Below, piece by piece: positions 20,926-35,024 of a DNA stretch of 64,000 nucleotides; the stretch's first letter is position 1, and the number at the start of each line of letters is the position of its first letter. Position numbers and translations under genes: made by a program. The stretch lies in the sequence record PZ026127.1, one strand, 5' to 3'. The notes beneath the pieces are model-generated. The model did not search any database. It saw only the letters and a program-made list of their open reading frames with translations, and was not told where the DNA came from. The stretch is from a phage.

Positions 20926-21161
20926 TGCTGAGCGAACAACCTATTACTGTAGAGCAGTTCCAAGTTAAAGTTAAAGAATTTGCTCAGGCCCTGATTAATA
21001 AGGTTTCTGTACATTTTCCTGATGCAACTCTGCGAGTAATCCAGGAAACACCACGTGCGGTATTGGTTATAGTTAATCTTAAAAATGGCGGCCAGGTTAC
21101 CCAATTGAAACTTGGTTCTGATGGTCTGGTCGAAGCGCAGCGGGTGTATATTGATGCTTAA
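20925..21161 (+). CDS. hypothetical protein (78 aa)
   Basis: coupled ORF. Confidence 0.5.
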   Translation: MLSEQPITVEQFQVKVKEFAQALINKVSVHFPDATLRVIQETPRAVLVIVNLKNGGQVTQLKLGSDGLVEAQRVYIDA

Positions 21162-21492
21162 TTTAAAACCGGCAGTTAATGCCACCTTACAATCTGACGA
21201 AGACGGAGACCATCGAGGTCTCTCTGAAAAGGCTACTCAGTACATCAAAGACCTTTTTAAACTGAGTGAAGATTTCCAAAGCATCCATACTTCAACATAT
21301 GATGCTGTGCTGGCTACTGTTCTTCCGGTTGAAATTGGTGATCGAATTCCGGCAGCGGTATTTTTCGATAAACAAAAACGCTTCCCAGACGGTTATGGTA
21401 TATTAACCTCACGTGTGAAATCTATCACTAAACTTCGTACCGATTTATATCGTGTCGAAACCAATAATACAGCTTATCTAGTGGTGATGTAA
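21154..21492 (+). CDS. hypothetical protein (112 aa)
   Basis: ATG 21154 overlapping the upstream stop. Confidence 0.5.
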   Translation: MLNLKPAVNATLQSDEDGDHRGLSEKATQYIKDLFKLSEDFQSIHTSTYDAVLATVLPVEIGDRIPAAVFFDKQKRFPDGYGILTSRVKSITKLRTDLYRVETNNTAYLVVM

Positions 21493-22037
21493 TGAAAGCA
21501 AGCACATACCTTCAGATTGCATATCTGATTTCTCAAGAATCAAAATGTTGTTCGTGGAAAGTGGGTGCGGTTATCGAAAAGAATGGTCGCATTATCTCTA
21601 CAGGCTATAACGGTTCGCCTTCTGGTGGTGTTAACTGTTGTGACCATGCTGTGGAACAGGACTGGACCCGTGTTGTGTATGACCCAGCGCGGATGTCGCA
21701 TAAATCTGTTCTTCTTAAAGAACACCGCATGGCTCACGCTGCATGGTCATCTAAAAATGAAATCCATGCTGAACTGAATGCTATTTTGTTTGCAGCTCGT
21801 ACCGGAAGTTCTATTGATGGCGCTACGATGTACGTGACATTATCTCCGTGCGCCGATTGTGCTAAGTCTATTGCGCAGTCTGGAATTAAAACATTGGTTT
21901 ATGCTGAGCTCTATGACCGAAATCCTGAAGGGTGGGACGATATCCTCCGTGAATCAGGCATCGAAGTTATCCAGTATAATCGTACAGGTCTCCGTTCTTT
22001 GAACTGGGAATCAATTCAAAACTATTGCGGTGAATAA
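21492..22037 (+). CDS. cd: dCMP deaminase
   Basis: 181 aa; zinc-binding cytidine/dCMP deaminase motifs HAELNAI and SPCADCA. Confidence 0.9.
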   Translation: MKASTYLQIAYLISQESKCCSWKVGAVIEKNGRIISTGYNGSPSGGVNCCDHAVEQDWTRVVYDPARMSHKSVLLKEHRMAHAAWSSKNEIHAELNAILFAARTGSSIDGATMYVTLSPCADCAKSIAQSGIKTLVYAELYDRNPEGWDDILRESGIEVIQYNRTGLRSLNWESIQNYCGE

Positions 22038-22342
22038 TGAATATTTTATTTGAAAAACCTAAACAAGTGGTTACTGTTGATTACACAGATACATTTATTG
22101 ATGCTCTTCTCCAAAAAGGTATCAAATCTATTAAAGTAGGTCCACTTTATGTTATTGAACAGCTTAAAGGCAATTCTACTGGCGAAATTTCGACTCATTC
22201 TACTAGTGATATCGAATATGTTATCGACCAATTGGTAAATGTAAACCCAGAATTGGTATTAGTCCGTGAAGTTCGTAAAGAAACTCGTGGCGGCGAAACC
22301 AAGTATATTGTCCGCATTGATTATATAAAAATCGAAGGCTAA
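22037..22342 (+). CDS. hypothetical protein (101 aa)
   Basis: coupled ORF after cd. Confidence 0.5.
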   Translation: MNILFEKPKQVVTVDYTDTFIDALLQKGIKSIKVGPLYVIEQLKGNSTGEISTHSTSDIEYVIDQLVNVNPELVLVREVRKETRGGETKYIVRIDYIKIEG

Positions 22343-22365
22343 GCATCCTAATTGAAGGAAACAAA

Positions 22366-22599
22366 ATGAAATTTCGTTTAGTTAAGTTTTCAGGTCTGAA
22401 CTCAAAAGGTGAAAACCTGATAGCTTATTCAGTAGAATATAAAAAGTACTTTTTCTCTCGTTGGAAATCGTACTATAAATCCGAGTGGGTTCGCGCTGAA
22501 ATGAAATATAAAACGGTGCCTATTCTTGATAATTGCCATAGCCTATTAAGAGCTCTAAAAGAGCGTAATGCAACCACTATCAAAACTATTCTGGAATAA
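22366..22599 (+). CDS. hypothetical protein (77 aa)
   Basis: ORF with AGGAAACA Shine-Dalgarno. Confidence 0.5.
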   Translation: MKFRLVKFSGLNSKGENLIAYSVEYKKYFFSRWKSYYKSEWVRAEMKYKTVPILDNCHSLLRALKERNATTIKTILE

Positions 22600-22601
22600 T
22601 T

Positions 22602-22901
22602 ATGATTTTAACCGAACAAGAAACTATTCGTCTCCGTGAAAAAGTCAAGACTATTTTGTCTGTTGGTTTTCACGAAGTCCTGTTTGAAAAAGCTGATGGT
22701 AGTGCCCGTCGTATGACTTGTACTCGCGACTTAGACCTGCTGCCGTATAAAGAAGTCCAGGCCCCTGGGCCAGAAGCCAATAAAGAACCTGTTAATTATA
22801 TCAGAGTATTTGATACCAAGGTTAATGATTGGCGCTCATTCCGTTTCGATAAGCTGATTTCTATTAACGGCCTTCAGACTGAAACTCTGCTTGTCCTGTA
22901 A
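22602..22901 (+). CDS. hypothetical protein (99 aa)
   Basis: coupled ORF. Confidence 0.5.
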   Translation: MILTEQETIRLREKVKTILSVGFHEVLFEKADGSARRMTCTRDLDLLPYKEVQAPGPEANKEPVNYIRVFDTKVNDWRSFRFDKLISINGLQTETLLVL

Positions 22902-22928
22902 TATGCTTTAAGAATAGCGTGTTATTAT
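22901..22928 (+). promoter_or_regulatory. MotA-dependent middle promoter upstream of gene 31
   Basis: ATATGCTTTA (MotA box), 12 nt, TATTAT. Confidence 0.5.
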
Positions 22929-22959
22929 TAATCTATCAACAAAACAATATGGATTAAAT

Positions 22960-23283
22960 ATGGAACTTCCTATTAAAGCGGTCGGAGAATATGTTATTCT
23001 CGTTTCCGAACCAAAACAAGCCGGTGATGAAGAAACTACTGCATCTGGTATCGTTATTGGCAAACTTCATCAAGGTGAAATCCCTGAACTTTGTGAAATT
23101 TATTCTGTAGGACCTGATGTCCCTGAAGATTTTTGTGAAGTAGGCGATTTGACTCCACTTCCTGTTGGTAAGATTGCTAACGTGCCTCATCCGTTGGTTG
23201 CATTGGGTATTAAACAACCTAAAGAAATTAAACAAAAATTCGTTACCTGTCACTATAAAGCTATTCCTTGCCTTTATAAGTGA
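22960..23283 (+). CDS. 31: co-chaperonin gp31 (GroES analogue for capsid folding)
   Basis: 107 aa; [12 protein letters not shown]...[13 protein letters not shown]-terminal [23 protein letters not shown] match T4 gp31. Confidence 0.92.
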
Positions 23284-23291
23284 TATAAATA
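23284..23291 (+). promoter_or_regulatory. late promoter TATAAATA upstream of rIII
   Basis: exact TATAAATA right after the gene 31 stop; about 138-nt leader to rIII. Confidence 0.5.
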
Positions 23292-23429
23292 ATAATATGG
23301 ATTGGCTGCCGGACTAGTTAGTTAACCGGAGAATCCTAAGCGGTGGACTACAACTGAGAGACTTGCCGAAAGGAAGTGAAATTCAGAAGAACGTGTCCAC
23401 CAATCTTTATCTCGAATTGAGAAACTAAA

Positions 23430-23678
23430 ATGAACAAACAATTGAATCACGCTCTTGAACTGCAACGCAACGCTTGGAACAACGGTCACGAAAACTACGG
23501 CGCATCTATTGATGTTGAGGCCGAAGCACTGGAAATCCTGCGTTATTTCAAACATCTGAATCCTGCTCAGGCTACTCTGGCTGCTGAACTGGAAGCTAAA
23601 GATGAACTGAAATTTGCTAAGCCTTTGGCTTCAGCAGCTCGTAAAGCAGTACGTCATTTTATTATTACCCTGAAGTAA
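23430..23678 (+). CDS. rIII: lysis-inhibition accessory protein rIII
   Basis: 82 aa; MNKQLNHALELQRNAWNNGHENYGASIDVEAEALEILRYFKHLNPAQ matches T4 rIII. Confidence 0.88.
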   Translation: MNKQLNHALELQRNAWNNGHENYGASIDVEAEALEILRYFKHLNPAQATLAAELEAKDELKFAKPLASAARKAVRHFIITLK

Positions 23679-23710
23679 GTTAAATCGAGGAGCCGTCGAA
23701 CTGTTTGATT

Positions 23711-23735
23711 AATGATTTGCGAATCATTATAGTTT
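23711..23735 (+). terminator. possible weak terminator hairpin after rIII
   Basis: AATGATT-TGCG-AATCATT inverted repeat followed by TATAGTTTTA. Confidence 0.3.
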
Positions 23736-23756
23736 TAAGACCCCAACAGTTTTACG

Positions 23757-23785
23757 GTGTACCTCTTGAATGTATTTTGTACTAT
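23757..23785 (+). promoter_or_regulatory. early promoter variant
   Basis: GTGTAC, 17-nt spacer, TACTAT; same architecture as 24154-24182. Confidence 0.45.
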
Positions 23786-23940
23786 CACGCGTCAGAAAAA
23801 GGTTATCTGTCTAAGTCGTGGTTGGTATGATGACGAGGTTTATGGTTATCCTGTCGTTAAATATCCGAAACCTATGTTCCCCTTGAGGGCTTGCGCAGGC
23901 AACGCCAATAAGTCCTGCATCCTAATTTAAGAGATTTAAA

Positions 23941-24102
23941 ATGGCCAAGAAAGAAGTTAAAGTAGTTGACGGTACCTCTAAACGCGCTGGTTACAAGCGT
24001 GCGTCCAACAAGCGTATCGATCAGGTAGTTGATAAGCTTCAAGCTCGTGCTCGTGCGGTATTGCGTGCAGATGCTGCTTGCTTTGGTAAGCCTCAGGCAT
24101 AA
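23941..24102 (+). CDS. small basic protein (53 aa), unknown function
   Basis: ATG 23941 to TAA 24102; MAKKEVKVVDGTSKRAGYKRASNKRIDQVVDKLQARARAVLRADAACFGKPQA; cgt/aaa/ggt codon choice; strong terminator follows; below ORF-track cutoff. Confidence 0.5.
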   Translation: MAKKEVKVVDGTSKRAGYKRASNKRIDQVVDKLQARARAVLRADAACFGKPQA

Positions 24103-24107
24103 GTTAT

Positions 24108-24131
24108 GGGACTCTTCGGAGTCCCATTTTT
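24108..24131 (+). terminator. rho-independent terminator (CUUCGG hairpin)
   Basis: GGGACTCTTCGGAGTCCC then ATTTTTGTTT. Confidence 0.75.
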
Positions 24132-24153
24132 GTTTCTAAATCTTTAAAAAATG

Positions 24154-24182
24154 GTGTACATCTCCGGTAGGCATGATACTAT
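24154..24182 (+). promoter_or_regulatory. early promoter cassette
   Basis: GTGTAC, 17 nt, TACTAT; flanked by inverted repeat GTACAT/ATGTAC. Confidence 0.55.
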
Positions 24183-24223
24183 AGACATGTACTAAATAAT
24201 ACGAAAACAAACTGGAGAATAAA

Positions 24224-24592
24224 ATGAAAATCAATCTTAACTCATATATCAAATGTAAAGACCACGACGGTTACAAAGCAATCGAAACTAAAGAAATGCA
24301 ATGGCACTTGTACAAAGAACAATTTGAATTTGTAGGTTGCATGACTCCGGAAGGTCCTTCTGATGACTTCTCTTGGAAAATTATGGTAACAAACTTTTTT
24401 ACCGGTGATACCTACGAACTGAAAACTATCATAACCGGTAAGATTCGTTGTAAGACCTATGAAGATGAAGAAACCGGTTATTCTGAAGATGTTACATGGT
24501 ATCAAAATGGTCGCACTACTGCTGATGAGTTGATTGAAAAAATGAAAGCCAAAGGTGAATTAAATTTAGATAATTGGATTAAAGTTGCATAA
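24224..24592 (+). CDS. hypothetical protein (122 aa)
   Basis: ORF after GGAGAATAAA Shine-Dalgarno. Confidence 0.6.
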   Translation: MKINLNSYIKCKDHDGYKAIETKEMQWHLYKEQFEFVGCMTPEGPSDDFSWKIMVTNFFTGDTYELKTIITGKIRCKTYEDEETGYSEDVTWYQNGRTTADELIEKMKAKGELNLDNWIKVA

Positions 24593-24596
24593 AACA

Positions 24597-24636
24597 GTTT
24601 ACTTTGGTACAGGTTGTGTTATTATAGACCTGTACC
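24597..24636 (+). promoter_or_regulatory. early promoter embedded in stem-loop
   Basis: GTTTAC, 17 nt, TATTAT; stem GGTACAGG/CCTGTACC; leader AAATAATACGAAAACAAACT duplicated from 24190-24212. Confidence 0.6.
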
Positions 24637-24674
24637 AAATAATACGAAAACAAACTAAACCAAAGGATAATAAA

Positions 24675-25040
24675 ATGAACTACATCAACTTCGAACGTAA
24701 ATATGTTTCTATCGGTGCGGTTGGTTCTAACGAATACATGTGTTTATGGGAGCATAAAAACGGTTCAGTTTGCGAAATCGACCATTGGGTTTCTCCTGAT
24801 TATGTTTATATGCGATTTGAAAATGGTATCACTCTTTCAATCACTAAAGAAGGTTCTTCTTTTAAAATAGCTTTAGATGATGATTTCCGTCAACGTGATT
24901 TAGGTACTCATCCTTGCTGGAACGGCGTTAATCGTAAGCTTCTGGTTAAAACTTGGATTCGTCACATCCTGAGCAACCGAGCTAAACCTGAACACCTGGA
25001 AGCAATCTTTGATGTAGTTCTGAACGAATTCGACATCTAA
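24675..25040 (+). CDS. hypothetical protein (121 aa)
   Basis: ATG 24675 after AAGGATAATAAA; track start 24585 overlaps the promoter. Confidence 0.6.
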   Translation: MNYINFERKYVSIGAVGSNEYMCLWEHKNGSVCEIDHWVSPDYVYMRFENGITLSITKEGSSFKIALDDDFRQRDLGTHPCWNGVNRKLLVKTWIRHILSNRAKPEHLEAIFDVVLNEFDI

Positions 25041-25050
25041 TCTTAAAAAT

Positions 25051-25070
25051 GGAGGCTTCGGCCTCCTTTG
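25051..25070 (+). terminator. CUUCGG hairpin terminator
   Basis: GGAGGCTTCGGCCTCC then TTTG. Confidence 0.55.
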
Positions 25071-25081
25071 AGGAAAATATT

Positions 25082-25369
25082 ATGTTTATGACCACTTATT
25101 TCGATACTCGTAAAAATTTCTGTGAAGTTGTTTTCTCTAAAGCAGGTAAAGACGTTCCTGCCGACAAACAACCCACTCGTGAATCTATTAAGGCCTATGC
25201 TGATGTTGTATGCCCGGTAGAATTCCGTACTGTTAATGGTCGTGATACCCTAGCAATCACTAAGCTCAACCATGATATCAATATCGACCCAAGTGTCGCC
25301 CGTGAAGTCAATACCTCTGACATCTATGGTGGTAATGTTAAATCACACGGCTTTCAGATGAGGTTCTAA
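25082..25369 (+). CDS. hypothetical protein (95 aa)
   Basis: ATG 25082 after GAGGAAAA; track start 25049 lies inside the hairpin. Confidence 0.55.
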   Translation: MFMTTYFDTRKNFCEVVFSKAGKDVPADKQPTRESIKAYADVVCPVEFRTVNGRDTLAITKLNHDINIDPSVAREVNTSDIYGGNVKSHGFQMRF

Positions 25370-25563
25370 TGCAACTATTTTTATCGCAAACAGTCCAGTT
25401 AAAAGGCGTAGGTATTCCTGGAATGATTTCAAAGGTTCTACCTGCTTTTAAATTAGGTAATGTTACTATTAAAGAAGCCTACACCGTCTTATGGGTCGAT
25501 GGAACTGAAGACGTTCGCATGGGCGGTGAACTGTCTGTAATCAAATGTTTAAAGCGAGGATAA
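25369..25563 (+). CDS. hypothetical protein (64 aa)
   Basis: coupled ORF. Confidence 0.45.
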   Translation: MQLFLSQTVQLKGVGIPGMISKVLPAFKLGNVTIKEAYTVLWVDGTEDVRMGGELSVIKCLKRG

Positions 25564-25564
25564 T

Positions 25565-25777
25565 ATGTTTAAGAAATTGATTCAGAAATTATTAGGTACG
25601 GAAATGGTCGAAGTGACTTATCGTGTGACTGATTTATCTCCTGTGCATCCGCAAGATGAACCATATACTAAAACAATTAAAATGCTGAAATCTGATGGCG
25701 GATTATCTATTGAAGACCGTCTACCTGGTTATGGTCATTGGGCTGATGTCGAAATTATAAGTGTCAAAGATGTCTGA
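25565..25777 (+). CDS. hypothetical protein (70 aa)
   Basis: coupled ORF. Confidence 0.45.
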   Translation: MFKKLIQKLLGTEMVEVTYRVTDLSPVHPQDEPYTKTIKMLKSDGGLSIEDRLPGYGHWADVEIISVKDV

Positions 25778-26228
25778 GTTAGAAATAAGAAGCAATTTTC
25801 CATGGCCATCGTGTGCATTAAGTAACTTTGCTAAATGGCCTTTCGTTATGGATGGTATCCAATTTGGTGGGCTCGAAGGATTCCTCCAAGGATGTAAGGT
25901 GAGAAATCATGAACAACAAAAACGTATATTTGGGATGTCCGGTCTGGCCGCACAACAAACTGGAAGAGCTTATGCTAGAGCTGCGGACCGTGGGACGCTG
26001 TTCTGGCTTGGAATTCCCTTTTCAAGATACTCTACATCATGGAAAGAGTTGTATACAAATGCATATTTTGAAGCAGCGCTCCAAAACAAAGGATTCCGCG
26101 ACGCATTACAAGCTACAAAGGGCAAAGTTTTAAAGCATTCGATGGCGAGCCACCTTACAGAATGTGATACAATACTAACTGAAAAAGAGTTTATCGACAT
26201 CCTAAACAAATTGAGAGATTTATTATGA
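25770..26228 (+). CDS. NADAR (YbiA-like) domain protein, candidate ADP-ribose glycohydrolase; likely 30.3 equivalent
   Basis: 152 aa from ATG 25770 (track start is GTG); SNFAKWPFVMDGIQF...LEGFLQGCK resembles the YbiA/NADAR core DFSNFAAWPIKVDGKTW...EHYFQAQK recalled from memory. Confidence 0.55.
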   Translation: MSELEIRSNFPWPSCALSNFAKWPFVMDGIQFGGLEGFLQGCKVRNHEQQKRIFGMSGLAAQQTGRAYARAADRGTLFWLGIPFSRYSTSWKELYTNAYFEAALQNKGFRDALQATKGKVLKHSMASHLTECDTILTEKEFIDILNKLRDLL

Positions 26229-26863
26229 AACCAGTTATCTTAACAGATATCGATGGAGTATGTTTAAGTTGGCAGTCCGGCTTGCCTTATTTCGCACAGA
26301 AATATAATTTGCCTTTAGAACATATTTTGAATATGATTCAGGACGAACGTTTCTTATCTCCTGGTGAGCTGTTTAATTGTGATAATGAATTAGGCGCTCG
26401 TTTAATCGAGAAGTACAATCAGTCAGATTTTATTCGTTATCTGTCTCCTTACATGGACGCATTAAAACATATCAACAAGCTCAAAAAAGACTTCGATTTT
26501 GTAGCCGTGACTGCGCTAGGCGACTCAATTGATGCACTGCTGAATAGACAATTCAATTTGAATGCTTTGTTCCCTGGCGCATTCAAGGAGATTCTGATGT
26601 GTGGTCATTCAGAATCAAAAGAAGACCTCTTCATAAGAGCTAAAAATACGTACGGTAAACGTATTAAGTTTTATGTTGATGATTTGGCTCACCACTGTGA
26701 TGCTGCATCTAATGTTCTCATGGATATCCAAGTTTATTGGTTAGCTCGTGGTGAACGTGACTTTAAACCTAATTTAGCCGTAAAGGTTAATTCATGGGAC
26801 GATATCGCAGCAATCGAATCCCTTCGTAATAATGCCGCAGTTGAATGGATTGCTCGAGGTTAA
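26225..26863 (+). CDS. HAD-superfamily hydrolase-like protein (candidate nucleotidase/phosphatase)
   Basis: 212 aa; N-terminal HAD motif I ILTDIDGV and C-terminal acidic motif KFYVDDL. Confidence 0.55.
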   Translation: MKPVILTDIDGVCLSWQSGLPYFAQKYNLPLEHILNMIQDERFLSPGELFNCDNELGARLIEKYNQSDFIRYLSPYMDALKHINKLKKDFDFVAVTALGDSIDALLNRQFNLNALFPGAFKEILMCGHSESKEDLFIRAKNTYGKRIKFYVDDLAHHCDAASNVLMDIQVYWLARGERDFKPNLAVKVNSWDDIAAIESLRNNAAVEWIARG

Positions 26864-26865
26864 TA

Positions 26866-27143
26866 TGTTTGTAGTTCATACAATTTCAGACTATGGTCCT
26901 ACCACTACAATGGATTATGGTCATGTAAACCAGTTTATTCGTCATGTGAATCATGATTACTCATTTGATGTAAATCCGGCTAAAGACCATCCTGTTTGGC
27001 GCGAATGCGTCGAACAGGGATTCATTTATGTCCACTTTATGTCCAAGTTCAAATCTGATGGGCGAATGAGATTTGTGTTCTCTTATCATAAGCGATTAGA
27101 CTTGCTTTTGGCTGATGTGGCTTATAATAGAATCCATGACTAA
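26866..27143 (+). CDS. hypothetical protein (92 aa)
   Basis: ATG 26866 immediately after the upstream stop. Confidence 0.5.
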
Positions 27144-27153
27144 TGAGGTGATT

Positions 27154-28677
27154 ATGATTTTAGATATTTTAAACGAAATTGCTGCTATTGATTCTACTAA
27201 AGCTAAAGAAGCCATTATTGCTCGTGAAAAGGACAATGAGCTTCTGAAACGTGTTTATCGTATGGCGTATACCCGTCGTCTGAACTACGGTATTAAAAAG
27301 TGGCCAGAACCTGGATTTACATCTCAATCCTTTGGTATGATTACTCTTGAAGACCTTCTTGATTTCGCTGAATTCACATTAGCCACACGTAAGATTACGG
27401 GTAATGCGGCTATTGAAGAACTGGCTCAAATCATTGCTGATGCTAAGGCCCCGGATGCCGAGGTATTACGTCGTGTAATGATGCGCGACCTTGAATGTGG
27501 TGCATCGATTTCTATTGCTAACAAGGTTTGGAAAGGTTTAATCCCTGAACAACCGCAGATGTTGGCGAGTTCTTATGATGAAGCTTTGATTAAGAAAAAT
27601 ATTAAATGGCCAGCGTTTGCTCAATTAAAAGCTGATGGCGCTCGTTGTTTTGCTGAAGTTCGTAATGATGGTGTGACGTTCCTTACTCGTGGTGGTAATG
27701 AATACCAAGGGCTTCATCTTTTAGCTGCTGAATTAATGGTGATGACCGAAGAAGCTCGTCAACGTCATCCTAATGGTGTTATGATTGATGGTGAATTAGT
27801 TTACCATACTCCTAAAGTAGAACCTAAAGCATCTAATGATTTGTTTAGTATGTTTGATGAGGAACTTCCTGAATTAAGTAAGGCTAAGGAATTCCAAACT
27901 GTCGCCGATCGTTCCACTTCAAACGGCTTGGCTAACAAGGCTCTTCAAGGAACTATTACTCCGACCGAAGCCGCAGGTATGGTATTACAGGCATGGGATT
28001 ATGTCCCATTGGATGTCGTATATTCCGAAGGTAAAATTAAAGGCGATAAGTATGATGTACGCTTTACAGCCTTAGAACTTATGGTTGCCCATAATGTCGT
28101 ATTGCATGGTACAACGCGTGTTGAAGCTATTGAAAACCAATGGGTTAACAATTTGGCTGAAGCTAAAGCGGTTTATAAGAAATATATCGGTAAACGCTTG
28201 GAAGGTATTATCCTTAAGAACATGGACTCCTACTGGGAGAACCGCCGTTCTAAGAATCTTATCAAGTTCAAAGAAGTAATCGATATTGCTTTAGAAGTAG
28301 TAGGTTACTATGAACACTCGAAGGACCCCAATAAGATTGGCGGTATAGAGTTAGTATCACGTTGTCGTCGTATTACAACTGACTGTGGTTCTGGTTTTAA
28401 AGATACCACCCATAAGAAAGATAAATCTGGTAAAAAGGTATTGATTCCATTGGAAGATCGTCCTGATTTAGACCGTGAACTTCTTATGAAACAAGCCCGT
28501 GAAGGTAAGTTGATTGGGCGTATTGCCGACTGTGAATGTAATGGGTGGGTTCATTCTAAAGGACGCACTGATACTGTAAGTATTTTCCTTCCAACTATTA
28601 AAGGTTGGCGTTTCGATAAAACGGAAGCCGATTCATTTGAAGATGTATTTGGCGATTGGTCTCAAACTGGACTATAA
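27154..28677 (+). CDS. 30: ATP-dependent DNA ligase
   Basis: 507 aa from MILDILNEIAAI (GAGGTG Shine-Dalgarno); ligase motifs FAQLKADGARCFAEV (active-site lysine), MIDGELV, and overall match to T4 DNA ligase. Confidence 0.95.
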   Translation: MILDILNEIAAIDSTKAKEAIIAREKDNELLKRVYRMAYTRRLNYGIKKWPEPGFTSQSFGMITLEDLLDFAEFTLATRKITGNAAIEELAQIIADAKAPDAEVLRRVMMRDLECGASISIANKVWKGLIPEQPQMLASSYDEALIKKNIKWPAFAQLKADGARCFAEVRNDGVTFLTRGGNEYQGLHLLAAELMVMTEEARQRHPNGVMIDGELVYHTPKVEPKASNDLFSMFDEELPELSKAKEFQTVADRSTSNGLANKALQGTITPTEAAGMVLQAWDYVPLDVVYSEGKIKGDKYDVRFTALELMVAHNVVLHGTTRVEAIENQWVNNLAEAKAVYKKYIGKRLEGIILKNMDSYWENRRSKNLIKFKEVIDIALEVVGYYEHSKDPNKIGGIELVSRCRRITTDCGSGFKDTTHKKDKSGKKVLIPLEDRPDLDRELLMKQAREGKLIGRIADCECNGWVHSKGRTDTVSIFLPTIKGWRFDKTEADSFEDVFGDWSQTGL

Positions 28678-28678
28678 T

Positions 28679-28861
28679 ATGAAAGCTTATTTAGAAACCG
28701 TGGTTATTGGATATAAAGAAGGTGGCGATGTCTCCACCGCAGTGTCCCAAATTGTCCTTGAATTTGAAAATGAAATCGCATTCGCTGATTTTAAAGATAA
28801 TTTCGACCGCTATGAAAAGGGTCCTAAATTTGAAGTATACCGTACGTTGCTACCACTTTAA
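28679..28861 (+). CDS. hypothetical protein (60 aa)
   Basis: ATG 28679 two nt after the ligase stop. Confidence 0.45.
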   Translation: MKAYLETVVIGYKEGGDVSTAVSQIVLEFENEIAFADFKDNFDRYEKGPKFEVYRTLLPL

Positions 28862-28878
28862 GGCCTTCGGGCCTTTTC
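28862..28878 (+). terminator. CUUCGG hairpin terminator
   Basis: GGCCTTCGGGCC then TTTTCT. Confidence 0.6.
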
Positions 28879-28911
28879 TGGCATAAATAAGGTTATTAAA
28901 GAGGAATTATT

Positions 28912-30807
28912 ATGTCCGAACAATTGAATGAGGTATTTGACGGCGCTATAGATTTATCAGCTGTCAATTTAAACCCTAAACTTAAAGTACCGCAGATTTG
29001 GAATATAAAGGCTGAAGGTAATGAGAACCTTGTTGCACGCATGGTTTCATATACTTCTGAAGGTGATACAATCCGCCAAGTTAAACCGGGTGACAAATAC
29101 GTTCATATTATTTTAATGAGCCTATCATCTAAAGGGGCCCCGGCAGAACTCAAAGGTGGTTTAGGTAGTAACCCCATTTCCGCTATTCGTTCTATATTTG
29201 ATACGGTTTATGAACAAGTTAAAAAGCTCCGTATGGATGCCGTTATGTTCCGTTTTCCTACTAAGAAAATGAAAGGTCAGGAAAAAGCTGTACAACGAGT
29301 TCTAGCCAAATTAATAGCTACTAGAGCAGGTGGGCAATTCAAGGTCCTTGATGCCTTGTATCAATATACAGGCAAACATTCATATGTTTTTATCTATCGT
29401 AAAAATAAAAATATAGAATCAATAAACGGTATTCCTAATATTAATCCGGAATTGTATACTAAAGTCGAATCTGAAGTCGGTGATGTGTATGTTTCAAAGA
29501 AAACAGGCGAAGATGTTACCAAATTAGAAGCTATAGCTAAGTCTATAGACGAAATAGAAAAATCACGTTCTGATAAAATGGTTATAACCAAGACTAAGGT
29601 TTCTAAACGGGCCGCTATAAATGCGTTATATTCTACCGCCGAGCCTACAGGATTGAGTAAATTTTCGGCAGAGCACAAAAAAGCTTATGCAGATTATTCT
29701 GCTACTAGTTCCGTTCATTCTTCTGAAGATTCTAAAGAAAGCCAAATAGCTTTAGCCAGTAATAAAATATTAAAAGACGCCTCTAAAGAAATGGCAGAAT
29801 ATTTGGATTATATTTTTAACGGTGTTAATCCATCATTTGAAGTAGACGAGCGCAAACTTAAACTAATTGCTGATATAAAGTTTGCTTTAGAGGCATCAGA
29901 TTCTTTAGATAAATCTAATAGTGTCATAGAGGCTTTAAAATCAGGTAAATCTCATGTAGACATTCTTAGACTAGTCGCTGCGGCCCTTTTAGATGATTCA
30001 GTTAAAGGTACTTGGGCTAGAGAATCTAAAATCAAGGAAGTAATAAAATCCTTAGTAGCAGTTTATACAAAATCTATCCAACCGTTGTTTAAGATATCTG
30101 ATAATCCTAATTTATCCAAACCTCAAGAAGAGGCAGTCAAAAAGTATACTCGTGGCGGCTACAACCATATAAACAACTTTTTGCTAGGTAAAACAGATAC
30201 CACCGATGAAATGATAAAAATGATTGGTGAGTTGGATTCTACATTTGAAAATGGTACAAAACTTCCTAAAGGAACCATAGTGTATCGTTCTCAGATAATG
30301 CCTACCGAAATGGCTTTGAATTCTATAAAACATAAGGTGATGTATCTTCCTATTTTTGCATCAACTTCATTGGCTCCTAATATTTTCGGTGAAATGGGTC
30401 ATGCTCAATCCAACTTAGACCCTGAAGCTCTTTCTAGCGATATAGATAGTAATCTTGAAGACACCATTAAAAGTGCGACCGGAAGTGCTAGAGATACCAT
30501 TAAGCTAGGGCTAATTATTAAAGGTGCTGATAAAATTAAGGTTATTGTGCCCGGTGACTTGGCTAATTGGTCTACAGAAACCGAAGTAATTCTTCCTCGT
30601 GGGGTTATGCTTAAGATTAATAAAGTATACGGTGCTTCCAAGGGACCTATGGGTTCAATTGGTAAATATGTTTTAGTGGAATGTGAAGTTGTAGCTACCG
30701 AGCAAATCACAGAGGAAAATTCATATAGCACCGGATTCTCGTTTGGAAATTATGATAGAATTATGTATGAAGATTCTATGGAAAAATTAGCAAATTTATT
30801 TAAATAG
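28912..30807 (+). CDS. Alt-like ADP-ribosyltransferase paralog 1 (631 aa)
   Basis: N-terminal module shared with the next two ORFs; C-terminal VYRSQ...FASTSL...STETEVILPRG (R / STS / ExE). Confidence 0.8.
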   Translation: MSEQLNEVFDGAIDLSAVNLNPKLKVPQIWNIKAEGNENLVARMVSYTSEGDTIRQVKPGDKYVHIILMSLSSKGAPAELKGGLGSNPISAIRSIFDTVYEQVKKLRMDAVMFRFPTKKMKGQEKAVQRVLAKLIATRAGGQFKVLDALYQYTGKHSYVFIYRKNKNIESINGIPNINPELYTKVESEVGDVYVSKKTGEDVTKLEAIAKSIDEIEKSRSDKMVITKTKVSKRAAINALYSTAEPTGLSKFSAEHKKAYADYSATSSVHSSEDSKESQIALASNKILKDASKEMAEYLDYIFNGVNPSFEVDERKLKLIADIKFALEASDSLDKSNSVIEALKSGKSHVDILRLVAAALLDDSVKGTWARESKIKEVIKSLVAVYTKSIQPLFKISDNPNLSKPQEEAVKKYTRGGYNHINNFLLGKTDTTDEMIKMIGELDSTFENGTKLPKGTIVYRSQIMPTEMALNSIKHKVMYLPIFASTSLAPNIFGEMGHAQSNLDPEALSSDIDSNLEDTIKSATGSARDTIKLGLIIKGADKIKVIVPGDLANWSTETEVILPRGVMLKINKVYGASKGPMGSIGKYVLVECEVVATEQITEENSYSTGFSFGNYDRIMYEDSMEKLANLFK

Positions 30808-30815
30808 GATAGATT

Positions 30816-32897
30816 ATGACCCAATTAAATGAAGTGTTCGAGTCCGAAGGTACACTGCCTGTTGTGAACTTGAACCCAAAACTTAAAGTACCTCAGATTT
30901 GGAAGATTGGAGACGCGGAGTCTCAGTTAGTAGCACGTATGGTATCCTATGCTTCTGAAGGCGATGCTATTAAACAGGTTAAGATGGGTGATAAATATGC
31001 CCACGTTATCCTTATGAGCCTTTCAGCTAAAGGTTCGCCTGCCGAACTTAAAGGCGGCTTAGGCCCTACTCCTGTAGATGCGATTAATACTATTTTTGAT
31101 GTAGTTTATGACCAAGTTAAAAAGCTTCGTATGGATGCCGTGATGTTCCGTTTTCCTACCAAGAAAATGAAAGGTCAAGGCCCTATCGTTCAACGTATTA
31201 TCCAACGTTTGGTAGCACAGAAAACCGGTGGACGTTTTAAAGTGGTTCCGGCTATGTACCAATTTACCGGTAAACATACTTACATCCTGGTAGTCCGTAA
31301 ACAAGCTGATATCGAAGATATCAAAGGTATGCCTGGAATTAATGCTGAATTGTATACTAAGGTAGATTCTGATGTCGGTGAAGTTTATATTTCCAAAAAA
31401 GAAGGTGTGCAGGTTACTAAAGAAACTGCTATTGCTGGCAGTATTGCTAAGGTTGAAGAACGTCGCACTGATAAAATGGTTATAACCAAGACTAAGATTT
31501 CTAGGCGCGCCATTGCAGCAAGCCAATCATTGGAATCTTATCGTAATGAAAGTGAATTGTTTAAGAAATATGAAGCTACTGCAGCGGATTTTAATAAACC
31601 GGCAACAGTTCCATTAATCCCTGAGGCTCAGGAAATGGTTACTAATAACAATTCTCCTGCGGCTAAAAATAAGGTTGCTAATATAGTGGCTGAAGGCACT
31701 GCTGAAGAATTGCATTACGATTATAAAATGTTTCCTCTTCACGGTATAGGTGAAATCCAAGAGAAAATTAAAGAGAAAATTCTTACAGCAATAAAAAACG
31801 AACCTTTGACATCTGTTAAAGCTCTAGAAAAATATGCCTCTGCTATTAATACCGTTTTCGAAGAATACAAAGGTGAATGGCTGGCTATCCATAACAGAAC
31901 TCGTAAAGGCCAACCTGATGACCTTTGGAACGAATTGACAGAGGCCAAGTGGAAAGCAGCCAAGACTAAGTTCATTAAAAAACGTGTATATAGTTTTGCT
32001 GGTGTGGGTGGCGGTATTATGGTTGATATTACTATTGCTCGTGAGGGCTCTAAATATACCCCATCACAAAAGCGCGGAATCAGAGAATATTGTGGTTCAG
32101 GATATACAGACATAAATAATCTTCTTTTAGGACGTTATAATCCTCAGAACTATGAGGTTATGAGCGAAAAAGATATCGAATCTGCAGTTAATAATTTGGA
32201 TTCTGCTTTTGAAAACGGCGACCGTATACCAGAAGGCATCACAGTTTATCGCGCACAGAGTATGACTGCTCCTATATACGAAGCACTAGTTAAAAATAAA
32301 GTGTTCTATTTCAGAAATTTTGTATCTACTTCTTTAACTCCTATCATTTTCGGACGTTTTGGTGTTACCCACGCAGGTATTGGTCTTTTAGAACCTGAAG
32401 TTCGCAATGAATTGACAGTCGATAAAAATGAAGAAGGAATAACTATTAACCCTAATGAAATAAGAGCGTATAAAGAAAACCCTGATTACGTTAAAGTTCA
32501 AATAGGATGGGTAATTGATGGAGCCCATAAAGTTAATGTCGTATATCCAGGAAATCTCGGAATAGCAACTGAAGCCGAAGTTATTCTGCCGCGTGGATTA
32601 ATGGTCAAAGTTAATAAAATAACAGATGCTTCTAATAATGATGGAACAACATCTAGTAATACAAAACTCATCCAAGCTGAAGTTATGACAACAGATGAGC
32701 TTCAAGAATCTGTGGTATATGATGGTGACGTACTAATGGAAACCGGCGAGCTGGTCGTGTATCAAGATGATTTCGATACTTCCGAAAGCCCTGTATCTTT
32801 TGATTCATTTGTTAAATCTACACGGTTTGATGTACTGCCTCTTTTGGCTTCATGCATAGACCTCTATGACATCCCAGAAAAATTCATCCAAGGGTAA
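30816..32897 (+). CDS. alt: Alt ADP-ribosyltransferase (693 aa; closest to T4 Alt)
   Basis: length near T4 Alt (682 aa); VYRAQ...FVSTSL...ATEAEVILPRG; recognised from memory as Alt family. Confidence 0.85.
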   Translation: MTQLNEVFESEGTLPVVNLNPKLKVPQIWKIGDAESQLVARMVSYASEGDAIKQVKMGDKYAHVILMSLSAKGSPAELKGGLGPTPVDAINTIFDVVYDQVKKLRMDAVMFRFPTKKMKGQGPIVQRIIQRLVAQKTGGRFKVVPAMYQFTGKHTYILVVRKQADIEDIKGMPGINAELYTKVDSDVGEVYISKKEGVQVTKETAIAGSIAKVEERRTDKMVITKTKISRRAIAASQSLESYRNESELFKKYEATAADFNKPATVPLIPEAQEMVTNNNSPAAKNKVANIVAEGTAEELHYDYKMFPLHGIGEIQEKIKEKILTAIKNEPLTSVKALEKYASAINTVFEEYKGEWLAIHNRTRKGQPDDLWNELTEAKWKAAKTKFIKKRVYSFAGVGGGIMVDITIAREGSKYTPSQKRGIREYCGSGYTDINNLLLGRYNPQNYEVMSEKDIESAVNNLDSAFENGDRIPEGITVYRAQSMTAPIYEALVKNKVFYFRNFVSTSLTPIIFGRFGVTHAGIGLLEPEVRNELTVDKNEEGITINPNEIRAYKENPDYVKVQIGWVIDGAHKVNVVYPGNLGIATEAEVILPRGLMVKVNKITDASNNDGTTSSNTKLIQAEVMTTDELQESVVYDGDVLMETGELVVYQDDFDTSESPVSFDSFVKSTRFDVLPLLASCIDLYDIPEKFIQG

Positions 32898-32900
32898 ATA

Positions 32901-35024
32901 ATGGAAAATTTAAACGAGGTTTTTGATAGTGATTCCGCTAAAAACTATCCAGTAACAAATCTTAAACCGGGTTCCGGTATTCCACAGATTTTCTCTATCC
33001 AAGCACCAGGTAACGATAACCTGGTTGCTCGCATGGTATCTTATGCGTCTGAAGGCGACGCTATTAAGATGGTTAAGGCGGGCGATAAGTACGTCCATGT
33101 TATCTTAATGAGTTTATCTGCTAAAGGCGCTCCGGCAGAACTCAAGGGTGGGTTGGGTACCGATCCACTCGGTACACTGAACACCATTTTCGATACCATA
33201 TACGAACAAATAAACAAACTTAAAATGGACGCGGTTTTATTCCGTTTCCCTACTAAGAAAATGAAAGGTAAAGGCCCTACCGTTCAGCGCGTATTAGCTC
33301 GTTTGGCTATGGCCCGTACCGGTGGTAAGTTTAAAGTTGTTGACGACATGTTCCAATTCAGCGGAAAACATACCTACGTTCTTTTAGTACGTCGTGGTGC
33401 TAATATTGAAGATATCAAGGGTATGCCTGAAATTAATGCCGATCTTTATACTAAAGTTGAGTCTAAAGTTGGCGAAGTGTATGTTTCTAAGAAAACCGGC
33501 CAGGCCGTAAGTAAGGTCGAAGCAGTAGCGGCATCTATTGCACAAGTTGAAGAGAAACGTACTGATAAGGCTGTCATTACCCGTACTAAGATTTCCCGTC
33601 GTATGGCAGCAGCCGCACAGTATTCTACTGCCGAGCCTGAAACTTTGTCCCCTAAAGAATTGCAGGTTTATAACGAGTTTGAAGCTTCTGTACCGGTTCA
33701 CACGGCTGAAGGCCCTGAGAATGAAGGTATTGAACAGATTAGTCAGAACTTTAAAAAAGGTGCTATTACTAAAATGCGCCAGGCTTCTCAGTTTAAATCT
33801 AAGAGCGAGGACCTTGCCAACTTTAGATACACTATTGCTCTCACACACGCTTTAATGACTGATAGTAAATTTAAACTAAATTATGCTAATAGAGATAAAC
33901 AAGGGTTTGAAATTTACTCTAATAATATGGCATTTTTTAATACAGAAGTCGATAGACTTTTAAGTGGCCTTTCGCAAATCAATACAACCAATAGTCTGGA
34001 TATTATTAAGAAAATTGTTAATAACCTGAGTACCCGTTTTAAGGGTTCCCCTTCAGAGAAAGCATCTAGAATTGCTTTCGCTATGGAAGCCGTTTATAAA
34101 CTGGTTAACGATTCTATTAGTGATGCATATGCTTATTCAGGCGAGCTCATTAAACCTAAGGACCTAACCAAAGACGAAAGCAATGCTATTATTGAATATT
34201 GCGCGGCTGAATATGCTCCTATGAACTTATTCCTTTTAGGTAAACCTGAATCCGAAAACAATACAACGGCTATTAAATTGATTAAGGATTTAGACTCGGC
34301 ATTTACTAAGGGTATTAAACTTCCTAAGGGTACTATTTTGTATCGTGGTCAGGATTTGCCATACAAAATTCTGCGCCATAATATCGATAACAAAACATTT
34401 TACTTTAAGAACTTTGTGTCAGCCTCACTAAAACCTAACATCTTTGGTGAATTTGGTAAAAATTATATGGCCCTCGACAACCAAGCCGTTTTTGTTGGCG
34501 GTGAAGGTTCTTTATCCTCCGCTGATGAGTTGTTTAAATTGGCTAGTGGTAGTTCGTCTGATGTAGGTGAAGTCGATGACGAAGAGGTAGAATGGGAAGA
34601 AGACGAGTTTGGTAATCCAATTGCACCTGAAGGTCCTGCAGATAGAATTGCTGAAATTGGTATGGTTATTCGAGGTGCTGAAGCAGTTAAAGTTATCGCT
34701 CCTGGTGACCTTACAGAATATGCCGAAGAAGCAGAAATTATCCTTCCGCGTGGATTATTGTTGAAGGTTGATAAAGTAGCGGCTTTTGCCATGAATGATA
34801 GAGTATCTCACAAATACCTTATGGAAGCTACCGTAACACCTCCTTCAGAGCTCAGCGAATCTGTTTACGATGGTGACCATTTGATGGAAACTGGTGAAGT
34901 TCGCCTGATGGATGGGTTCAGTCAATTCTTGGTTAATGAATCTGTTTCTGAAAGCAACGAGGCTATGGAAATCCTTGCAGCGTCTTTGGATATCTCTTCT
35001 TTATCAAATAAATTCAAAATGTAG
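32901..35024 (+). CDS. Alt-like ADP-ribosyltransferase paralog 3 (707 aa)
   Basis: shared N-terminal module; C-terminal LYRGQ...FVSASL...AEEAEIILPRG with an acidic insertion. Confidence 0.8.
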   Translation: MENLNEVFDSDSAKNYPVTNLKPGSGIPQIFSIQAPGNDNLVARMVSYASEGDAIKMVKAGDKYVHVILMSLSAKGAPAELKGGLGTDPLGTLNTIFDTIYEQINKLKMDAVLFRFPTKKMKGKGPTVQRVLARLAMARTGGKFKVVDDMFQFSGKHTYVLLVRRGANIEDIKGMPEINADLYTKVESKVGEVYVSKKTGQAVSKVEAVAASIAQVEEKRTDKAVITRTKISRRMAAAAQYSTAEPETLSPKELQVYNEFEASVPVHTAEGPENEGIEQISQNFKKGAITKMRQASQFKSKSEDLANFRYTIALTHALMTDSKFKLNYANRDKQGFEIYSNNMAFFNTEVDRLLSGLSQINTTNSLDIIKKIVNNLSTRFKGSPSEKASRIAFAMEAVYKLVNDSISDAYAYSGELIKPKDLTKDESNAIIEYCAAEYAPMNLFLLGKPESENNTTAIKLIKDLDSAFTKGIKLPKGTILYRGQDLPYKILRHNIDNKTFYFKNFVSASLKPNIFGEFGKNYMALDNQAVFVGGEGSLSSADELFKLASGSSSDVGEVDDEEVEWEEDEFGNPIAPEGPADRIAEIGMVIRGAEAVKVIAPGDLTEYAEEAEIILPRGLLLKVDKVAAFAMNDRVSHKYLMEATVTPPSELSESVYDGDHLMETGEVRLMDGFSQFLVNESVSESNEAMEILAASLDISSLSNKFKM

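Follow-up and report, generated by a model that had tools for sequence, protein, structure and literature searches.

A full-length Dhakavirus orthologue of T4 gene 30.3 (adfN), predicted to encode a phage-type NADAR

Gene 30.3 and its neighbourhood

The window, by which we mean the whole 64,000-nucleotide stretch of phage record PZ026127.1 that was analysed, carries an open frame that runs from an ATG at 25770 to a TGA at 26226-26228 and encodes 152 amino acids, as read from both the ORF listing and the raw sequence. An alternative GTG start at 25761, three codons upstream, would give 155 amino acids; the ATG is the start used for gene 30.3 in T4, QL01 and other annotated relatives. The genes that concern us here are as follows.

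25565..25777, plus strand: homologue of gene 30.4, 46% identical to T4 gp30.4, with a stop that overlaps the adfN start (ATGTCTGA)
25770..26228, plus strand, stop codon included: adfN, the gene 30.3 orthologue, encoding a 152-residue phage-type NADAR (predicted DNA guanine-ADP-ribose glycohydrolase)
26225..26863, plus strand: homologue of gene 30.2, 212 amino acids, 74% identical to T4 gp30.2 over 194 amino acids, phrog_420
about 27115-28677: ATP-dependent DNA ligase (PF01068)
28912-30807, 30816-32897 and 32901-35024, plus strand: three consecutive Alt-like genes, all PF03496 (E = 7.6e-14, 4.3e-36 and 2.6e-17, in that order)

The overlap between the 30.4 stop and the adfN start suggests translational coupling, and at the other end the adfN stop overlaps the start of 30.2 in an ATGA junction. 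Overlapping starts and stops of this kind, at both ends of adfN, are typical of translationally coupled genes in the T4 early region. Downstream of 30.2 come DUF3045/gp30.1, the ligase, alt.1 and Alt, and the order 30.4-30.3-30.2-30.1-ligase-alt.1-Alt matches that of T4, with synteny kept on both sides of 30.3. A 2.2-kb piece around adfN is 98-99% identical to Shigella phage PSD9, IME540, QL01, WG01 and MX01, and the gp30.3 protein is identical to those of QL01 and LHE83. QL01 belongs to Dhakavirus (Straboviridae; Tevenvirinae), and the window comes from a Dhakavirus-type T-even phage.

The protein has a single match in Pfam, PF08010 (Phage_30_3, 'Bacteriophage protein GP30.3'), at E = 3.6e-64, with a score of 215.1 bits set against a cut-off (gathering score) of 36 and with profile positions 2-138 of 138 covered. 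Its match in PHROGs is phrog_652, a family of unknown function. Aligned without gaps to T4 gp30.3 (NC_000866, 152 aa), it is identical at 130 of 152 positions (86%), leaving 22 substitutions. The 88 nucleotide differences between the two genes are distributed over codon positions 1, 2 and 3 as 22, 11 and 55, and this concentration at third positions points to purifying selection on the 30.3 frame. A first-pass annotation of the window had reported the 152-residue frame together with two of its strings, SNFAKWPFVMDGIQF and LEGFLQGCK, and had guessed from position that the gene is equivalent to T4 30.3. Both strings are present (residues 18-32 and 35-43, respectively), and the guess proves correct, given the PF08010 match, the identity to T4 and the gene order. 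Judged on these three lines of evidence, the window gene is the full-length Dhakavirus orthologue of T4 gp30.3, now known as AdfN.

Within adfN, in the +1 frame, lies a counterpart of 30.3', an internal gene annotated in T4 (25909-26133, plus strand). It is preceded by a Shine-Dalgarno-like AAGGTGA and would encode 74 amino acids, 62% identical to the 75 amino acids of T4. T4, QL01 and the window all have 30.3' as an open frame; in RB69 and in Yersinia phage MHG19 it is interrupted. Codon changes between T4 and the window count 7 synonymous against 28 non-synonymous in 30.3', versus 21 against 11 in the main frame, and 30.3' is unlikely to be a conserved protein-coding gene.

A strong terminator-like hairpin (24106-24127, plus strand; ATGGGACTC-TTCG-GAGTCCCAT, then TTTTTGTTT) stands just ahead of the run of genes that includes 30.3, and may mark the border of the transcription unit. 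A promoter scan of 21000-29000 was uninformative, since it found 20 sites against 22.5 expected.

Fold and active-site residues

The first-pass annotation had likened the protein to the NADAR/YbiA core, a resemblance for which evidence had to be sought beyond direct profile searches. Searched alone, the window protein has no match to PF08719 (NADAR) at E <= 1. When 79 homologues were scanned one by one, all 79 matched PF08010 and 20 also matched PF08719, the best at E = 1.5e-7. Scans of gp30.3 and gp30.2 with PADLOC and NCBIfam returned no match. For want of a direct PF08719 match, the NADAR link is drawn from structure, from these transitive matches and from the literature.

Among PDB chains, a sequence search matched E. 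coli YbiA (2b3w) and no other, at E = 1.2 with the single sequence and at E = 0.031 with an 80-sequence family profile, in an alignment that spans SNFA.WP and E...Q..K. An AlphaFold2 model of the window protein, built on an alignment of 79 sequences from which the T4 sequence was left out, has a mean pLDDT of 95.5 and a pTM of 0.89. When this model was searched against the PDB with Foldseek, the top matches were YbiA 2b3w (E = 5.5e-5), 8bau (a Phytophthora NADAR-ADPr complex) and 8bat (the DarT1-associated NADAR of Geobacter lovleyi), and the remainder were noise; the model thus matches only the three solved NADARs. It has the alpha-helical core flanked by two small beta-sheets that characterises the NADAR fold. 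The early resemblance to YbiA is upheld by these matches, and four independent lines, namely the YbiA sequence match, the PF08719 matches of homologues, the model and the conserved residues given below, tie the window protein to the NADAR superfamily. Four features of the protein could be placed on the DNA.

25821..25829, plus strand: S18-N19-F20, the N-terminal NADAR motif, invariant among the 79 homologues and aligned with SNF at YbiA residues 30-32
25875..25898, plus strand: E36-G-F-L-Q-G-C-K43, with the predicted catalytic Glu and phosphate-binding Lys, from alignment with NADARs
26136..26138, plus strand: H123, directly after the last beta-strand (120-122 in the model), invariant, in place of Glu (YbiA) or Asp (DarG1)
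26181..26222, plus strand: C-terminal alpha-helix, residues 138-151 in the AlphaFold2 model, required for full activity and absent from the frameshifted, DarTG1-sensitive RB69 allele

Over the 79 homologues E36 and H123 never vary, and conservation of K43 is at least 90%. The numbering of E36 and K43 is the same as in T4 AdfN, the pair aligns with the Glu and Lys of YbiA (E-x3-Q-x2-K), and the Glu-to-Lys distance, seven residues, is the one seen for E88/K95 in the E. coli C7 NADAR and for E43/K50 in PnNADAR. The Glu/Lys pair is functionally important in the T4 (PMC11825919), E. coli C7 and PnNADAR enzymes. A phage NADAR subfamily that bears His was noted by Schuller et al. 2023 (PMC11543638), and by this literature definition H123 is the mark of the gp30.3 phage NADAR subfamily.

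Distribution and disrupted alleles

By tblastn, homologues of 30.3 occur in 1,511 of 50,697 phage records, chiefly in T4-like phages of Escherichia, Klebsiella, Shigella, Aeromonas, Acinetobacter and Vibrio, and almost all of them are annotated as 'hypothetical protein'. The protein database holds many further metagenomic homologues, some of them on jumbo-phage-like and bacterial contigs. For instance, a 308-kb metagenomic, jumbo-phage-like contig carries a PF08010-type NADAR near NUDIX and Thg1-like genes (L004, 6001-6468), and a 995-kb Bacteroides MAG contig, as large as a bacterial chromosome, carries another, whose surroundings, searched to 6 kb, contain neither DarT nor phage genes (L003, 6001-6444).

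In several natural T-even phages the gene is called in a shortened or frameshifted form. The RB69 30.3 protein has 137 amino acids and stops after ...TILT, a truncation that was confirmed here. Gene calls that are shortened at the N-terminus or frameshifted were also seen in SV76, UGJNEcP4 and vB_Eco_NR1, and in vB_EcoM-RPN226 the 30.3 match reaches 35% coverage. The vB_Eco_NR1 call starts out in the 30.3' frame and then switches to that of 30.3, a sign of an indel. In Aeromonas phage 25, gp30.3 lies inside a tRNA cluster; as deposited, it is without the conserved L-x-H-S-x-G-K, has an early stop and is annotated at 140 amino acids (L009, 4001-4441), an anomaly that may stem from a local frameshift or from an error in sequencing.

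Shortened and frameshifted 30.3 alleles may be markers of DarTG1-sensitive phages. Relabelling the family as AdfN (NADAR, anti-DarTG1) would be of use in host-range prediction for therapeutic T-even phages against strains that bear DarTG1, a full-length allele predicting resistance and a frameshifted or truncated one (RB69, NR1, SV76 and others) predicting sensitivity.

Predicted function and comparison with known NADAR systems

NADARs hydrolyse the guanine-ADP-ribose produced by DarT1 (Schuller et al. 2023, PMC11543638). T4 gp30.3 was cloned and listed as a phage NADAR in Toxins 2024, where it stripped guanine-ADPr in vitro, not thymine-ADPr (for this see also PMC12945103), and gave uninfected E. 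coli no protection from DarT1 (PMC11125620). Johannesman et al. (Nat Commun 2025, PMC11825919) used T2/T4 x RB69 recombinants to map the DarTG1 resistance of T-even phages to 30.3, and gave it the new name adfN, for anti-DarT factor NADAR. [quoted passage not shown] The natural sensitivity of RB69 comes from a 1-nt insertion that shortens its protein by 15 residues, and rescue of RB69 is impaired by E36A, by K43A and by C-terminal truncation of AdfN (PMC11825919). The T4 NADAR was used again in Toxins 2026, where phage NADARs are grouped with guanosine-specific enzymes (PMC12945103). The removal of ADP-ribose from DarT-modified guanine, which the first-pass annotation had given as the activity of NADAR enzymes, has thus been observed as hydrolysis in vitro with the T4 orthologue (PMC11125620). 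Its proposal of a counter-defence against DarTG-type systems stands for that orthologue against DarTG1, in vitro and in infection, and falls for DarTG2, which modifies thymine.

Carried over to the window phage, these results predict the following course of events. In a host with DarTG1, DarT1 would place ADP-ribose on guanines of the phage DNA and so block replication. AdfN would then cleave the N-glycosidic guanine-ADPr bond by means of E36, K43 and H123, restoring the DNA and with it phage growth. As a bacterial two-hybrid assay of T4 AdfN against the toxin was negative (PMC11825919), AdfN presumably acts as an enzyme, without binding the toxin; it would be an orphan antitoxin mimic that reverses the damage, and the window protein a minimal stand-alone N-glycosidase of the NADAR fold. 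What was computed here for the window allele is its orthology and full length, its fold and the conservation of its active site. The T4 data cover the T4 protein for activity and the T4 and T2 alleles for DarTG1 resistance, and the window allele differs from T4 at 22 of 152 residues. By analogy with the 86%-identical T4 protein, we put the probability at roughly 90% that the window allele, like T4 AdfN, is a guanine-ADPr N-glycosidase that counters DarTG1. The function of T4 gene 30.3 is already published, and the window gene is a routine member of an experimentally characterised family; the value of the finding is that of an annotation update, with no new biology from the window.

T4 AdfN fails in uninfected cells and helps non-T-even phages weakly, which implies that a T-even cofactor or context is needed; we assume that it is present in the window phage. 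A potentiating T-even factor for AdfN(T4) has been posited in published work, as AdfN(T4) works fully only in T-even infections. The gene downstream, 30.2, whose ATG overlaps the adfN stop, is one candidate. Its product is without the C-terminal ~85 residues of T4 gp30.2 (278 aa) and has an N-terminal HAD/NT5C-like DxDGV start (DIDGV), with a weak Pfam match to NT5C (E = 0.074). A PDB sequence search with gp30.2 returned noise and a weak match to a 5'(3')-deoxyribonucleotidase, 2jao (E = 0.25). In some Klebsiella phage records gp30.2 is labelled '5' nucleotidase'. Gene 30.2 occurs in 1438 phage records, compared with 1511 for 30.3, with similar genus counts, and this co-distribution may reflect no more than that both are near-core genes of the T4 superfamily. 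The two genes are non-adjacent in several genera (for example in Aeromonas phage 25 and Enterobacter phage vB_VIPECLUMC02). Conservation of the 30.3-30.2 pair was also considered as a clue to the cofactor and was dropped, the next gene on the 308-kb jumbo-phage-like contig being unrelated to gp30.2. Since adjacency is not conserved, a potentiating role for this translationally coupled, HAD/NT5C-like putative phosphatase is speculation, and we regard it as distinctly improbable.

The first-pass annotation had also drawn attention to a nearby ligase and, 2.7 kb downstream, to three ADP-ribosyltransferase genes, and these are indeed present, the first Alt gene starting 2,684 nt past the adfN stop codon. 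The three Alt-like paralogues have 631, 693 and 707 amino acids; in T4 and RB69 there is a single full-length alt, with small remnants (alt.-1, alt.-2). This triple expansion is common to QL01, where the three are annotated as Alt-like ADP-ribosyltransferases. Physical closeness speaks for a pairing of 30.3, as an eraser, with the Alt 'writers', in which it would remove the ADP-ribosylation made by the phage's own Alt transferases (arginine-ADPr on host proteins, or RNAylation). The layout is, however, the inherited and generic T-even gene order, which T4 and RB69 share with a single Alt. Aeromonas phage 25 does not have it: there gp30.3 lies among the tRNA genes, at a distance from ligase, Alt and 30.2. 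The pairing of writer and eraser is therefore unsupported, as the Alt linkage is T-even synteny that is lost in more distant relatives. Moreover, the NADAR activities described in PMC11125620, PMC11543638 and PMC12945103 are all on base-linked ADPr of nucleic acids, and DarTG1 alone explains the T4 deletion phenotype (PMC11825919). We consider an Alt-directed role very unlikely.

An equally slight chance attaches to a housekeeping function, in which the protein would be a YbiA-like N-glycosidase for small molecules (reactive riboflavin-pathway intermediates, or soluble ADP-ribose-derived immune signals) and not for DNA adducts. YbiA is the closest PDB sequence match, as this reading would have it, but His123 stands in place of the YbiA-defining Glu after the last strand, and a published phylogeny sets gp30.3 proteins nearest to DarG1-type NADARs, not to YbiA. 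The T4 orthologue, furthermore, works on ADP-ribosylated DNA in vitro, and the phenotype of its loss is specific to DarTG1 (PMC11125620, PMC11825919). That the window allele is inactive or decaying, retained like RB69 30.3 and no longer protective, is the least credible reading of all: disrupted alleles do exist in close relatives (RB69, SV76, UGJNEcP4, NR1 and RPN226), but the window allele is full length, keeps all invariant residues, has a confident fold and shows the pattern of purifying selection against T4 (55 of 88 differences at third positions).

As a predicted DarTG1-countering NADAR, the window protein can be set beside four kinds of known system. E. coli YbiA (2b3w), a housekeeping NADAR and riboflavin-intermediate N-glycosidase, is about 20% identical to it and differs in the replacement of the YbiA-type Glu by His123. 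The setting of YbiA is the dinG-ybiB operon, whereas that of the window gene is a phage early-gene region, and the biological roles differ. In the case of DarG1, the NADAR antitoxin that goes with DarT1 (E. coli C7, and Geobacter lovleyi 8bat; PMC11543638), the difference begins with the neighbourhood, since the window gene has no adjacent DarT1 toxin gene: its neighbours are the 30.4 and 30.2 homologues, and the nearest ADP-ribosyltransferases are Alt-type PF03496, not DarT. The N-terminal extension of DarG1 (8bat has 219 aa) is absent from the 152-residue window protein, which consists of the core only, and the Asp that follows the last strand in DarG1 is His123 here. Nor can the T4 gp30.3 protein replace DarG1 in uninfected cells.

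[quoted passage not shown] They were acquired independently, belong to other NADAR clades and function without T-even infection; unlike them, the gp30.3-type NADAR appears to be dependent on a T-even context. From T4 itself the window Dhakavirus differs in having three tandem Alt paralogues and a gp30.2 of 212 amino acids (278 in T4). In T4 AdfN, nevertheless, the features of the window protein recur throughout, namely a length of 152 amino acids with 86% gapless identity, the residues E36, K43 and H123, the C-terminal helix, membership of PF08010, and a place in the genome with 30.4 on one side and 30.2 on the other, ligase and Alt following downstream.
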